Positions 1 to 39,993 of a DNA stretch of 44,713 nt are shown here, piece after piece. The position numbers and the translations under genes were made by a program. The notes under the pieces were generated by a model. The model saw only the letters and a program-made list of their open reading frames with translations. It was not told where the DNA came from and ran no database searches. The first letter of the stretch is position 1. The number at the start of each line of letters is the position of its first letter. The stretch lies in the IMG/VR virus record IMGVR_UViG_2531839450_000015; one strand, written 5' to 3'. Source of the DNA: a virus. Lineage: Duplodnaviria > Heunggongvirae > Uroviricota > Caudoviricetes.

Positions 1-582
1 TTACTCTGCAGGTGAAGTCGGCCACTCAATATCAGGTGCAGTTGATGTGTCAACACGGTTCAGCAATACCCGATACTTCTTCCAGGCTTCCAGCAACGAG
101 GTTTCTTCCTCCGTTGCAATTTCCAGATCTGCAGCATCCTGAAGCGGCGCAATATGCTCACTGGCTACCTGCATCAGGCTTTTTTTTGTTTCTTCCGCCT
201 CCCGGATCCGGAACAGTTTTTCTGCTTCCGTATCCTTCACCCAGGCTGTGCCGTTCCACTTCTGATATTCCCCTCCCGGCGATAACCAGGTAAAATTTTC
301 CGGTAACGGACCGGGTTCAGAAATAAATAACGCGTCGCCGGAAGCCACGTCATAGACGGTTTTACCCCGATGGTCTTCAACGAGATGCCACGATGCCTCA
401 TCACTGTTGAAAACAGCCACAAAGCCAGCCGGAATATCTGGCGGTGCAATATCGGTACTGTTTGCAGGCAGACCGGTATGAGGCGGAATATATGCGTCAC
501 CTTCACCAATAAATTCATTAGTTCCGGCCAGCAGATTATAAATTTTTATGGTCCGTGGTTGTTCACTCATTCTGAATGCCAT
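1..582 (-). CDS. tfa: Tail fibre assembly protein (lambda Tfa-like)
   Basis: 193-aa ORF directly downstream of the side tail fibre gene; stop codon at the window edge (1..3). Size and position match lambda Tfa. Confidence 0.8.
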
Positions 583-29156: not shown

Positions 29157-29315
29157 AGGATGATCCTTTTTCTATGTGAATCATCACCACTGCTGACGCC
29201 AATCAGTATGGTGGTGAACTGTGCAGGGTTGGCGTAACCGGGAAAAAGGAACCGGCGCGGATCGCTCCGCCCCCACACAGCCCACCATTGAGATGTGACA
29301 GTGCAAACGACAATA

Positions 29316-29340
29316 AAAAAGACGCTGGCGCGTCTGTTGT
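29316..29340 (-). terminator. tR'-like intrinsic terminator downstream of Q
   Basis: Minus-strand AGACGC-GCCA-GCGTCT followed by TTTTTTATT, located between the Q stop and the first late gene. Confidence 0.5.
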
Positions 29341-29429
29341 CGCCTTTTTCATCCGGGACGCCAATCCCGACGCCAGATTTTGCTGGCGCGTGAGGAATAT
29401 AGCCCCGGACAATGTGTCTGGTCAAGCTC

Positions 29430-31977: not shown

Positions 31978-32133
31978 TTACTCCTCAGGTTCGTAAACTG
32001 TGAAGACAGCGACCTCCGTCTGGCCGGTTCGGATTCGTACCTCGCAGAGGTCTTTCCTCGTTACCAGTGCCGTCACTATGACGGTTAAACAGATGACGAT
32101 CAGGGCGATTAACATCGCCTTTTGCTGCTTCAT
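31978..32133 (-). CDS. hok: Hok/Gef-family type I toxin
   Basis: MKQQKAMLIALIVICLTVIVTALVTRKDLCEVRIRTGQTEVAVFTVYEPEE is essentially the HokD/RelF sequence as I recall it. AAGGAG SD upstream. An overlapping upstream in-frame extension (to 32190) corresponds to a mok-like frame. Confidence 0.85.
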   Translation of the reverse strand: MKQQKAMLIALIVICLTVIVTALVTRKDLCEVRIRTGQTEVAVFTVYEPEE

Positions 32134-32542
32134 AGCCTGCTTCTCCTTGCCTTTCGGCACGTAAGAGGCTAACCTAGATTTGCCGTTCATAGATTGAGCC
32201 TCAGATTAATGTTAAGCGTCTTGCAGGACGCATAATGTTAACTGGGGCTTTTCTCTATCTGCCTTTGGTGTTCATGCTTGAGGCAGATAGCCTCAAGCAC
32301 CCGCAGCAATTTTACTTAACTCCCCTTTTCCCACAAATCGTTTTTATCCCTATTGGTAATGTTCTCCCGATGTGGGATTCCCACATTGGAACGAATTCAA
32401 TCAGTTAAAGACTCATCAGAATCTCACCTTTCTAAGTGCCCACAGGTGAGGCATTGCAATAAAAATAGCAAACGTGTATAAAAGGAGGTAATGCATGTTT
32501 TTCCAGTCTTATCAATCCATTACTGAGAGTTAAGGGGGCGCC

Positions 32543-37255: not shown

Positions 37256-37334
37256 ATCACCCTCACAATGTGAACTTTGAGTACATGCTATAACAGAACT
37301 GACAGTACATTCAAGAGCGAATATCATTGAACTT
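37256..37334. promoter_or_regulatory. Divergent promoter/operator region of the immunity switch
   Basis: 79-bp AT-rich spacer between divergent regulators. Repeated AGTACAT and TGAACTT motifs. Confidence 0.45.
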
Positions 37335-37754
37335 ATGGTTCATGAAGATAAAGCGCGTAAAGAGTTCGCCAGTAGGCTTGCGCTAGCCTGTGAAAACGCT
37401 GGTTATGAACAACATGGAAGGCAGGCAGAAATTGCCCGTCGAATGAAATTAACACCAAAAGCGGTTAGCAAATGGTTTAATGGCGAAACAATTCCTCGCC
37501 GGGAGAAATTAAGGGAATTAGCAACACTAATAGGAACAACACCAACCTATCTTTTGGGAGAGGATACAGAAGAAAGTGGACAGGTACGTTTCTATCAAGA
37601 GTTAAATCCAAGACAAAAAATCATCATTGACCTTCTGGACGAGCTCCCTGACAGTGAGACAGATGAACTTTTAAAAACTCTTGAAGAGAAAAAACAGAAG
37701 TACAATGCAATTTACGAAGAGTTAGCACGAAAGAAAAAACAAAAAGCCTCTTAA
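37335..37754 (+). CDS. Prophage repressor, XRE/CI-like HTH (RacR-like)
   Basis: HTH (QAEIARRMKLTPKAVSKWFNGETIP) at the N-terminus. Divergent from the cro-like gene. Confidence 0.75.
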   Translation: MVHEDKARKEFASRLALACENAGYEQHGRQAEIARRMKLTPKAVSKWFNGETIPRREKLRELATLIGTTPTYLLGEDTEESGQVRFYQELNPRQKIIIDLLDELPDSETDELLKTLEEKKQKYNAIYEELARKKKQKAS

Positions 37755-38049
37755 ACCAGCATAAATCCGGTAGCGCCTTCCTCCGGGTTTGTGCTTCACT
37801 TTATCCCATCTCATTTTTTTTACACACAAAATGTACTAAAAGTACTTTACAACAATGAACGCAAAGTACATTATATACCTGCCACCCACCCCGCCCCAAA
37901 GAATGCAGGGCAATACTTCGAGTTACCAGGCAGTGGTCAGGGGTTAAGTAGCCAGCCCGAGGCGTAAGAACATGACGGCAGGGTTCAACTTTAACTATGC
38001 AGCAGGTTTTTGTTCCGCTACCCCGGCGTTAAGGGGAAATGAGGTCAAC

Positions 38050-38202
38050 ATGGATACTATCGATCTTGGCAACAGCGAATCTCTGGTATGTGGCGTGTTT
38101 CCCAACCAGGACGGTACGTTCACCGCGATGACGTATACCAAAAGCAAAACGTTTAAAACCGAAGCTAGCGCGCGTCGCTGGTTATCCAGAAATACTGACT
38201 GA
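38050..38202 (+). CDS. Small hypothetical protein downstream of the repressor (YdaF-like position)
   Basis: 50 aa from ATG at 38050 with GAGG SD; same strand as the repressor. Confidence 0.4.
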   Translation: MDTIDLGNSESLVCGVFPNQDGTFTAMTYTKSKTFKTEASARRWLSRNTD

Positions 38203-38588
38203 TGAGGTTAACGATGGAATTTAAAGATTTACCAACACCTTTCCAGGAAATGGCAGCGAATATAGTTCGTTCTCAATTGGCGACTCTTGACCTGAGTACC
38301 GTAGAAAAAGAAACCATAGATAATATATCCGGTAACGTGCGCCGTGCCTTTATCGGGTTGTACGAAGAGAAGCAGCACTCTGATAAGCATGATTCCTCTG
38401 AAAAATACTTCCTGGAATTAATGGATATCATTAACAAGGGGTTTGGTTTGTTGATGGAAAAGAAAGGGATTCGAATAGAACCCCTTAAAAACCATTTTAC
38501 TGAGTGCAACATTAATTCCTGTGATTTAAAGCATCCCACTTCAGATGGGAAAGTTGAAGCCAACTATAAAATATCAATTAATCATTAA
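38202..38588 (+). CDS. Hypothetical protein co-oriented with the repressor
   Basis: 128-aa ORF whose ATG overlaps the stop of the preceding ORF (TGATG). An alternative ATG at 38214 has a GAGG SD. Confidence 0.45.
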   Translation: MRLTMEFKDLPTPFQEMAANIVRSQLATLDLSTVEKETIDNISGNVRRAFIGLYEEKQHSDKHDSSEKYFLELMDIINKGFGLLMEKKGIRIEPLKNHFTECNINSCDLKHPTSDGKVEANYKISINH

Positions 38589-38666
38589 GTTCTCCACGGG
38601 TGAGGTGGAGAACATGCGCCGGACACGGATAAATCTCCGGCATGCTCTTTAACATTCTGGATATTC

Positions 38667-39113
38667 CTAACCACAAAGAAATCGCATCAATTTAGATTTT
38701 GTGGGCAGCTTCTCTTGTTGTTCGATGGAAACGCCTATTTTGATCTGTGTTTTTAAGATCGCAATATCTTTAAGTGATGACCAAATATGATCATCCGTTT
38801 TTTCCAGAATTTTTAACTGCATTTTCAATTCAGAATCAGAATATTTTTCTGCATCATCAAAAAGCTGCAAATATTCTGCGGATTTTCTCATGGCGTTACC
38901 TGACTTTTGTCCGAATCCATAAATCGTTTGGACGGTTGCGATCACAACAATAAAAACGCCAGAAATTTCCGGAATGAATCCGCCAATGACAGATGAACCG
39001 AGGATAATACTCACCACTGAGAGAAGTTTATCGAGACGACCAGTCGCTACAGAAAATAGTTGCTCAAGAAAATAGCCATATAAAATTCTGTCAAGAATAT
39101 CATCCCGGTCCAT
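38667..39113 (-). CDS. Two-TM membrane protein in the sieB position (candidate superinfection exclusion protein)
   Basis: 148 aa with central hydrophobic helices (LLSVVSIILGSSVIGGFIPEISGVFIVVIATVQTIYGF). Convergent with the repressor operon, between repressor and early-left operon as sieB is in Rac. Confidence 0.45.
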   Translation of the reverse strand: MDRDDILDRILYGYFLEQLFSVATGRLDKLLSVVSIILGSSVIGGFIPEISGVFIVVIATVQTIYGFGQKSGNAMRKSAEYLQLFDDAEKYSDSELKMQLKILEKTDDHIWSSLKDIAILKTQIKIGVSIEQQEKLPTKSKLMRFLCG

Positions 39114-39578
39114 ACATCATCACCTGCTTGTTTGGTTGTTGCTGTTCCCCCTCTCCTCCGAAGGAGCTGGAGATGGTTTTGGTCGAATGTTTTTCTCTGG
39201 TATGTGATCCCAGACTGTTTTATGTGTCGAATTGCCACCACCTGCTTGTGCTCTTTGCTCTGTCATATGATTTCCTTGGATCGTTGGGGATATCCAGATT
39301 ATACAGATTTCTTGTCGTTGGGGAATGACAGGAACCACCTCGCCTGACGTGGTTAAAAGCAGGCACACAACACGAAAGCGCACGGCGAAGTCATTTCTCC
39401 CTCTGTTGCGTGTCGCCGGTATCTTCGACCGTGCGCTTCCGGTTGTGGCACTCCGCGAAATGGCGCGGCGGTAAGTATGGCGGGGTTATCCTTACCCCCA
39501 CTGGTAGCACCGGGTTGTCAGGTTGACCATACGCCTGAGTGACAACCCCGCCACAACATCTCCATGTTGAGGCTTGTG

Positions 39579-39619
39579 TGAGACCTTTGGCGGCATCAGT
39601 TTAATTGCTGGCTGATGTC
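39579..39619 (+). terminator. Intrinsic terminator ahead of the early-left promoter region
   Basis: GGCGGCATCAG..CTGATGTCCGCC stem followed by CTTTTT. Confidence 0.5.
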
Positions 39620-39633
39620 CGCCCTTTTTAAAG

Positions 39634-39794
39634 TGAATTTTGTGATGCGGTGAATGCGGCTAAGCGCACGCGGAACAGTTAAAAAGCGATTAGTTCCCCC
39701 GTATCGGGTGTTTATGGGTTTCCCTGTATCCGGCGTTAATTGTTAACTGGTTAACGTCACCTGGAGGCACCAGGCACCGCATCACAAAATTCAT
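39634..39794. repeat. Perfect 19-bp inverted repeat pair (TGAATTTTGTGATGCGGTG / CACCGCATCACAAAATTCA) flanking 123 bp
   Basis: Exact reverse-complement copies at 39634..39652 and 39776..39794, immediately upstream of the first early-left gene. Confidence 0.6.
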
Positions 39795-39810
39795 TGTTGA
39801 GGACGCGATA

Positions 39811-39993
39811 ATGGAAACGTTATTACCAAACGTTAATACGTCTGAAGGTTGTTTTGAAATTGGTGTCAGAATCAGTAACCCTGTATTTACTGAAGATGCC
39901 ATTAACAAGAGAAAACACGAACGGGAGCTATTAAATCAAATATGCATTGTTTCAATGCTGGCCCGTTTACGCCTGATGCAAAAAGGACGCTGA
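39811..39993 (+). CDS. Small hypothetical early protein
   Basis: 60-aa ORF with GAGGA SD 7 nt upstream. Confidence 0.35.
   Translation: METLLPNVNTSEGCFEIGVRISNPVFTEDAINKRKHERELLNQICIVSMLARLRLMQKGR

Follow-up and report, generated by a model that had tools for sequence, protein, structure and literature searches.

Do the genes that follow a prophage repressor on the same strand belong to the lysogenic programme and protect the host cell, or are they early lytic genes kept silent by that repressor? This question is raised by positions 37755-39113 of the Caudoviricetes sequence IMGVR_UViG_2531839450_000015, a stretch of 44,713 nt that is referred to here, at its full length, as the window. In this region, the gene of a DicA-like repressor is followed by two small open reading frames (ORFs) on the same strand and by a convergent ORF for a 148-aa membrane protein. 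An earlier sequence-only reading located these genes in the position occupied by exclusion genes in lambda and Rac, and it regarded the three products as candidate exclusion or abortive-infection factors, the small ORFs being co-transcribed with the repressor in the lysogen.

The three ORFs, located at 37972..38202 (plus strand), 38202..38588 (plus strand, 128 aa) and 38667..39113 (minus strand, 148 aa), are real genes, more than would arise by chance, as supported by family matches and by the ratio of nonsynonymous to synonymous substitutions (dN/dS). They are split, however, between two separate units, and the locus also holds a fourth ORF (39120..39266, minus strand, 48 aa) that had been overlooked. 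According to the interpretation that is favoured here, with modest confidence, the plus-strand unit (37755-38588) would be the start of an early-left operon repressed in the lysogen, and the minus-strand unit would be an antisense insert, a cassette that would serve in the lysogen as an abortive-infection or exclusion module.

The repressor and the two same-strand genes

The repressor (Pfam HTH_3, E 1.8e-9) can be aligned over its full length with DicA of E. coli K-12 at 29% identity (E 5e-15), and it scores 56.8 bits, under the cutoff, against the DicA subfamily of NCBIfam. Its reading frame stops at 37754, that is, 295 bp before ATG 38050, the start codon adopted here for the next gene, and 217 bp before ATG 37972, the start of a longer reading of the same ORF (76 aa). 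The stop/start overlap that had been described between the repressor and the small ORFs is consequently absent. Such an overlap (TGATG) does exist between the two small ORFs themselves, but it may be unused, since the second gene begins at ATG 38214 both in PHROG alignments and in RefSeq.

The gap behind the repressor (37755-37971) contains a hairpin, two operator copies and a promoter-like sequence (Table 1). The hairpin consists of 15 pairs and has a minimum free energy (MFE) of -19.2 kcal/mol (z = -4.9), with none of 200 shuffled sequences being equally stable. The operator pattern TGWACNNNNAGTACWT, searched with at most one mismatch, finds five matches in the 44.7-kb window, where 0.46 would be expected, and none of 100 shuffles reaches that number. 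All five lie either at the left operator (OL), in the gap, or at the right operator (OR; 37271-37310, between the repressor and cro), and the spacing is 24 bp at both.

Related sequences help to define where the immunity-specific part of this region ends. E. coli 1303 holds a different repressor, of the LexA type, yet it is 99.8% identical to the window from 37884 onward, so that the immunity-specific part would end at this joint, just past the -10 element of the predicted early-left promoter (PL). The equivalent gap of E. coli 1303 presents a canonical terminator, a TTGACT promoter and an operator of its own (GGTAAC-N4-GTTACC). The LexA-type relative L001 has a canonical terminator where the window has the post-repressor hairpin, and in Qin the sequence TGTTAGTCAT is common to the gap and to OR. 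Since the layout is alike in the window, in L001 and in Qin, the order repressor, terminator, OL/PL, leader and ydfA appears to be general for this phage group.

Two further observations concern the same joint. Its location immediately 3' of the predicted -10 element of PL, between DicA-like and LexA-like modules, would correspond to an exchange of modules at the start of transcription. Beyond it, the leader of about 170 nt (37884-38049, plus strand) that runs from the predicted PL start to the ydfA-like gene is 99.8% conserved in the phage with the different repressor and absent from Qin.

The product of the first small gene could be assigned to a family, contrary to the statement that it had no assignable motifs. 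Its 50-aa form, which starts at ATG 38050 with a GAGG sequence 5 nt upstream and is annotated by RefSeq at an almost identical locus, matches DUF1391 (PF07151) with 93.5 bits (gathering cutoff 27.3, E 6.1e-27) and is 88% identical to YdfA of E. coli K-12. In synteny with Qin, Tritos and vB_EcoS-666R9 (666R9 hereafter), this ydfA-like gene is placed first after the repressor-controlled early-left promoter. No paper on the function of DUF1391 was found in the literature search.

The second product, in its 128-aa form, matches phrog_6937 (E 1e-71), and the start used in PHROG and RefSeq, which is preceded by GAGG 6 nt upstream, yields a protein of 124 aa. This protein has 227 homologues in Escherichia and Salmonella, nearly all of them of 124 aa and none of them named. 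Its N-terminal ~60 aa are common to phrog_1363, phrog_2151 and phrog_9419, where they are joined to other C-termini, which suggests a modular early protein whose C-terminal half would be swappable. The same N-terminal ~60 aa recur at 83% identity in a family of 133 aa. The possibility that the protein is a fusion of YdfB and YdfC was ruled out, as it shows no similarity to either of them. Neither of the two small products matches a defence family of PADLOC or holds a transmembrane (TM) segment.

Further downstream, the early-left operon continues with DicF, DicB, a YdfD-like gene and an exonuclease gene. DicF (39575-39624, plus strand) scores 45.4 bits in Rfam (E 4e-8), which falls slightly short of the gathering score (48), while DicB (39811-39993) matches PF05358 (E 1.5e-37) and is followed by a protein with DUF1482 (YdfD-like). 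The spacer between dicF and dicB includes an STnc100-like stretch (39622-39843, plus strand; 36 bits, E 1.4e-5).

The dicBF operon of Qin shows the same elements in the same order and on the same strands: a short DicA-like repressor, operators and promoter, YdfA, DicF, DicB and a DUF1482/YdfD-like protein. The two loci differ in that their repressors are only 29% identical and their operators are different, in that Qin has ydfB and ydfC where the window has the unrelated 124-aa gene, and in that the window carries a 710-bp antisense cassette inserted before DicF. In Qin, it has been demonstrated that the promoter dicBp, located between dicA and ydfA, is derepressed 22-fold when dicA is deleted, and that polycistronic ydfABC-dicF(-dicB-ydfD) transcripts originate from it (PMC10448788). 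When RacR is disturbed, two genes of Rac, ydaG and the DUF1391 gene ydaF, are upregulated 40-70-fold along with kilR, ydaE and racC (PMC11014345).

Because a hairpin, operators and a promoter lie in the gap, and because the first product is identified as YdfA, the 50-aa and 124-aa genes are read as what would be the first two genes of a repressor-controlled early-left operon, probably off in the lysogen and not rex-like. That the neighbouring repressor shuts off the promoter of the operon is suggested by the placement of the operators together with the experiments in Qin and Rac. In this operon, the repressor transcript would stop at the hairpin, and the operator pair and PL, which corresponds to PL of lambda and to dicBp of Qin, would come next. 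The DicA-like repressor, when bound to its operators, would keep the early-left genes off in the lysogen, and the ydfA-like and 124-aa genes would be made after induction or infection.

The antisense cassette

The 148-aa gene lies in an insert of ~710 bp, from ~38643 to ~39365, which is extra in comparison with Tritos and Qin. Tritos has the same repressor, its DNA is 97% identical, and it is devoid of the insert. The Rac-like 666R9, again with the same repressor, has sieB at the position of the cassette and likewise on the opposite strand, which agrees with the earlier proposal that the convergent gene occupies the place of sieB. Between the convergent genes there are backbone hairpins (the minus strand folds with an MFE of -30.1 kcal/mol, z = -4.0) that are conserved in Qin and Tritos, both without the cassette, and that are likely to function as a terminator for it.

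The antisense orientation is a constant feature of the cassette. It is antisense to both neighbours in 38 of the 38 close loci found in IMG/VR, and it is so too in nine divergent contexts (Salmonella, Enterobacter, Proteus, Klebsiella and Sodalis among them), as well as in the Providencia phage PSTNGR2lys and the Elizabethkingia phage EKP1. Most of the divergent cassettes sit inside the early-left operon, in the interval between repressor and integrase, of lambdoid and Cox-type prophages, and others are found between the Q antiterminator and the holin (a Sodalis prophage and EKP1). Among 5426 complete E. coli genomes, the cassette is present in 94, always on the chromosome. Some copies of the cassette, such as P0020 and L044, show truncations or frameshifts. 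Of the 38 IMG/VR loci, only 13 also have the 124-aa gene, and cassette and gene are thus independent modules.

The two TM helices that had been predicted for the 148-aa protein are present, although in its N-terminal half and not at its centre: the hydrophobic stretch covers residues 27-68 of the 148, with segments at ~29-47 and 50-68 according to hydropathy. A dN/dS of 0.08-0.16 indicates strong purifying selection on the gene. The product is included in phrog_6315, and searches of Pfam, NCBIfam and PHROG with the 124-aa, 148-aa and 48-aa products gave nothing with a named function. The literature search found no paper on the cassette. While a word-indexed search recovered close relatives only, a full HMMER scan, which covered 1.84 billion representatives, defined a family of 143 representatives (E < 1e-3), almost all of 145-175 aa. 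Members of this family occur in Enterobacter, Serratia, Yersinia, Providencia, Proteus, Klebsiella, Edwardsiella and others, and all those found in the profile search are annotated as hypothetical and have no Pfam domain. Both the length of the protein and its partner ORF are conserved down to ~25% identity across Enterobacterales.

The structure of the protein was predicted with AlphaFold2 (AF2). A model based on six close sequences was unusable, with a predicted local distance difference test (pLDDT) of 59.9, and the final model was built from an alignment of 90 sequences (pLDDT 88; predicted template modelling score, pTM, 0.77). It consists of a long N-terminal helix that runs into TM1 (residues 3-44), TM2 (48-65) and four more helices (67-86, 93-105, 113-126 and 138-147), which are placed in the cytoplasm, and the turn between TM1 and TM2 has three residues. 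The model predicts a two-helix hairpin of the SLATT type, with both ends of the protein in the cytoplasm. Two adjacent TM helices with flanking cytoplasmic alpha-helices, as in SLATT, are therefore present according to both hydropathy and the AF2 model.

In a Foldseek search of BFVD, a collection of viral models, many of the top 25 matches are annotated as SLATT (probability 0.91-1.0, TMq 0.45-0.68). RTasSLATT, the sole PADLOC model matched by the products of these genes, matches the 148-aa protein weakly (E 0.002), SLATT models of PADLOC are matched by 4 of 90 family members, and the "2TM effector" of cyclic oligonucleotide-based antiphage signalling systems (CBASS) is also weakly matched in relatives. 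The protein can be described as SLATT-like in its predicted fold, with a similarity that lies below the family thresholds and does not establish membership. In view of this SLATT-like predicted fold, the statement that the protein had no assignable motifs is in part no longer correct.

Two other assignments of the protein were discarded. Homology to SieB was ruled out, as no match to PF14163 appears at E values up to 10 (SieB of 666R9 scores 108 bits) and comparison of the 90-sequence profile with SieB by hhalign gives a probability of 0.3%. A HEPN domain in the C-terminal helices, considered on account of weak matches of 3 of 90 members to Cthe_2314 HEPN, was dropped, the consensus being devoid of the R-x4-6-H motif.

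The 48-aa ORF ends 6 nt before the start of the 148-aa gene, whose Shine-Dalgarno (SD) sequence is located inside it. An equivalent ORF of 26-52 aa, with an SD-like motif, is found in the same place in 11 of the 11 divergent loci examined, it shares the motif (D/S)(I/L)P…H(I/M)P(E)K…(R/K)P.PPP.P, and it was annotated by the depositors of PSTNGR2lys and EKP1. RefSeq leaves the 48-aa ORF uncalled in E. coli 1303. Its dN/dS is 0.26-0.41. In 6 of the 38 IMG/VR loci (L013-L015, L021, L022 and L044), the small ORF has been lost by a deletion of 117 nt between ACAAGCAGGTG repeats, which keeps the promoter region. Because the 148-aa gene is intact in five of these six loci, the small ORF does not seem to be an indispensable antitoxin, and the idea of an obligatory antitoxin is disfavoured by these natural variants.

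Upstream of the small ORF, the control region of the cassette has two features in common among nine of the 11 divergent loci (the early-operon subfamily), which were aligned. The direct repeat CCCCAACGA occurs at 39315-39323 and 39281-39289 (34 nt from start to start), flanking a perfect TATAAT (39298-39303), and both copies change in concert in L045, L050 and L054. Upstream of them, at 39334-39364, an invariant GCCTG/CAGGC is interleaved with a covarying ACCAC/GTGGT. In these nine loci, 95.6% of the cells of the alignment are paired and two pairs are compensatory. Rfam has no match for the element, which may act as DNA or as RNA.

Table 1. Features of the immunity region and of the antisense cassette (positions in the window).
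Feature	Position	Strand	Basis or remarks
Prophage repressor, 139 aa	37335..37754	+	HTH_3, without S24 peptidase domain; DicA-like
Hairpin, candidate terminator of the repressor transcript (t_imm analogue)	37758..37795	+	Folding energy
Two putative operator copies (OL), 24 bp apart	37831-37847 (palindromic ATGTACTAAAAGTACTT) and 37855-37871 (ATGAACGCAAAGTACAT)		Pattern search
Promoter-like TTTACA-17-CATTAT, putative PL/dicBp analogue	37846..37874	+	Promoter scan; overlapped by the operators
YdfA/YdaF homologue (DUF1391), 50 aa, first early-left gene	38050..38202	+	PF07151, identity to K-12 YdfA, RefSeq
Early gene, 124 aa (128 aa from ATG 38202)	38214..38588	+	phrog_6937; stands where Qin/Tritos have ydfB and ydfC
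Backbone hairpins between the convergent genes	38589..38650		GTTCTCCAC-N7-GTGGAGAAC, then GCCGGA-N12-TCCGGC
Inner-membrane protein, 148 aa, two-TM hairpin, SLATT-like predicted fold; main cassette gene	38667..39113	-	Hydropathy, AF2, Foldseek
Hydrophilic proline-rich ORF, 48 aa (…WDHIPEKNIRPKPSPAPSEE…)	39120..39266	-	AAGGAA Shine-Dalgarno; conserved position
Cassette regulatory region	39281..39364	-	Nine-locus alignment; repeats, -10, interleaved motifs

Proposed function of the cassette and rival explanations

That anti-phage genes can reside in the "moron" slots of prophages, close to the repressor, has been proven in cases such as rexAB, sieB and BstA. Since the 148-aa gene forms a discrete insert with a promoter-like site of its own, its expression in the lysogen and a role in exclusion or abortive infection are a reasonable reading, and the cassette is most likely a lysogeny-expressed abortive-infection or exclusion module. 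The existence of the genes, their layout, the operators, the boundaries of the insert, the resemblance in fold, the conserved partner ORF and the antisense orientation are regarded as shown. From the features described above, an expression pattern, a mechanism of membrane damage and an anti-phage role can be inferred as follows. Transcription of the cassette would begin at its own -10 site, run counter to the early operon and take place in the lysogen. Upon infection by a foreign phage, the membrane protein would open or perturb the inner membrane and abort the infection, in the manner proposed for SLATT effectors and with an effect like that of SieB, and the small peptide or the conserved upstream element would set the threshold for this response. 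On induction of the resident prophage, convergent transcription from PL would silence the cassette.

Known systems resemble the cassette in part. The sieB gene of Rac, P22 and lambda (PF14163) is found in the same place, on the opposite strand and inside the early-left operon, and both SieB and the 148-aa protein are small membrane proteins of prophages. In contrast, the two proteins differ in length and helix layout, and sieB has no proline-rich ORF upstream. The 148-aa gene is a positional analogue of sieB and not a homologue. The lambda genes rexA and rexB are also accessory genes near a lambdoid repressor, and a membrane protein is implicated as well. However, rexAB, of which RexB is a multi-pass membrane protein, is co-transcribed with cI upstream of PL, whereas the same-strand genes of the window lie downstream of PL and the gene for the membrane protein is on the opposite strand.

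As for SLATT proteins, they have been presented as effectors that are predicted to form pores in defence systems (bioRxiv 10.64898/2026.04.29.721553). Effectors of this kind (as in DRT10 and DRT3) share with the 148-aa protein a two-TM hairpin between cytoplasmic helices. They differ from the cassette in having a nucleotide cyclase, SLOG or reverse-transcriptase partner, while the sole conserved partner of the cassette gene is the peptide of 26-52 aa. Known SLATT effectors are accompanied by a signal-generating enzyme partner. The 148-aa protein might instead act as a stand-alone SLATT-like pore, a minimal abortive-infection system of a new type. Such a system would be governed by the proline-rich 26-52-aa product, either as a micro-protein or as a ribosome-arresting leader peptide, together with the element borne by the cassette (the interleaved motif and the concerted repeats around the -10 site), and not by a nucleotide-signalling enzyme, and it would be turned off by convergent early transcription on induction. 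This more specific model is put forward tentatively, as a possibility that is more likely to need revision than to stand as it is.

Several results weigh against the interpretation of the locus that is favoured here. Concerning the cassette, no SMODS cyclase, SLOG or reverse-transcriptase partner was found in the divergent contexts examined, where the neighbours are ordinary early and late phage genes. PADLOC (2023) has no model for it. The SLATT matches obtained by Foldseek in BFVD have E values of 0.011-0.42, none of them at or below 1e-3. The Pfam models SLATT_4 and SLATT_fungal each match 2 of 90 members, with E values of 0.04-0.08 and scores that always stay under the gathering cutoff, and fold searches of the PDB gave no specific match to a solved structure, with no solved SLATT structure there for comparison. 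The promoter of the cassette combines its perfect -10 with a poor -35, and it was not called by the promoter scan. Concerning the early-left operon, the strict terminator scan did not report the post-repressor hairpin, to which a clean U-tract is missing, and low-level read-through from the repressor promoter past it is possible.

This same possibility of read-through, in a hairpin that is no textbook terminator, and the location of the small ORFs downstream of the repressor and on its strand are what favours the original proposal, in which all three products would be exclusion factors expressed in the lysogen, with the small ORFs on the repressor transcript like rexA and rexB. Nevertheless, this proposal retains little probability. 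The operators and the promoter separate the repressor from the small ORFs; the 50-aa gene corresponds to ydfA, the first gene of the DicA-repressed dicBF operon, and read-through would reach DicF and DicB, both of which are toxic (PMC10448788); ydaF and ydaG of Rac are derepressed along with lytic genes (PMC11014345); and no defence family of PADLOC includes either small product. Co-transcription with the repressor in a rex position is for these reasons considered unsupported. A different alternative accepts the membrane protein as protective and changes its mode of action: it would be a true superinfection-exclusion protein that keeps DNA from entering or obstructs a receptor or transporter of the inner membrane, like SieA of P22 or DicB on ManYZ, without killing the infected cell. 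Its nature as an inner-membrane protein of a prophage in the position of exclusion genes is consistent with this idea, and DicB of the same operon protects by inhibiting inner-membrane receptor proteins (PMC6832061). Nonetheless, the periplasmic loop of ~3 residues in the model would leave little surface for contact with incoming phage parts, and the fold resembles that of SLATT effectors. A block of entry is regarded as unlikely, if the least so of the rivals considered here.

It could also be argued that the phage or the element itself benefits from the cassette, and not defence. The cassette would then be a toxin-antitoxin addiction pair, made of a membrane toxin and a small antidote, or it would encode a membrane protein that is holin-like or sets the time of lysis. 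The two-TM topology with both N- and C-termini inside is reminiscent of class II holins, the cassette adjoins the holin in the Sodalis prophage and in EKP1, and a small upstream partner is typical of two-gene toxin systems. On the other hand, no holin family is matched, and at every locus, even beside holins (L046, L055), the cassette is oriented against the genes for lysis or early functions, which places it outside the lytic programme. The 117-nt deletion, which removes the small ORF and leaves the 148-aa gene intact in five loci, does not fit a peptide that is an indispensable antidote, and this explanation is judged improbable. The least probable of all, and very improbable, is that the cassette has no function at present and is carried along as a neutral or decaying passenger. 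Its rarity among complete E. coli genomes and its truncated or frameshifted copies would be in line with such a fate. Such a fate is at odds, however, with the dN/dS of 0.08-0.16, with the retention of protein length and partner ORF at ~25% identity across Enterobacterales, and with the conservation of the non-coding element.

Other features of the window and significance of the locus

Outside the immunity region, the window holds other elements identified with Rfam. The stretch 29207-29402 (minus strand) reaches the gathering level for isrK (79 bits) and for C4 antisense RNA (74 bits), with a1/b1 targets. In P1/P7 and Gifsy phages, regions under antisense control of this kind govern antirepressor or anti-Q genes. 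The region at 29207-29402 may be relevant to the inactivation of the repressor, which would be uncleavable. A sok antitoxin RNA at 32128-32302 (minus strand; 112 bits) implies that the prophage contains a hok/sok module. At the edge of the window, a match to IS009 RNA is located (41-239, minus strand).

Returning to the two units, the early-left unit represents already known biology, that of a dicBF-type early operon, plus one uncharacterised gene, whereas the antisense unit represents a family not yet characterised, which occupies a slot of a known kind and whose partner and control region are unusual. For the annotation of prophages, the former means that the genes downstream of a DicA-type repressor in this arrangement would be early lytic genes under the control of that repressor, and not lysogeny genes. 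If the function proposed for the cassette is true, it would be a compact two-gene module of ~0.7 kb that is easy to clone, spread across the prophages of Enterobacterales and missing from the PADLOC catalogue of 2023. Its membrane protein would be a SLATT-like effector that works without the enzyme partner by which known SLATT systems are defined, and the question of what triggers SLATT proteins would become approachable experimentally in a minimal setting.

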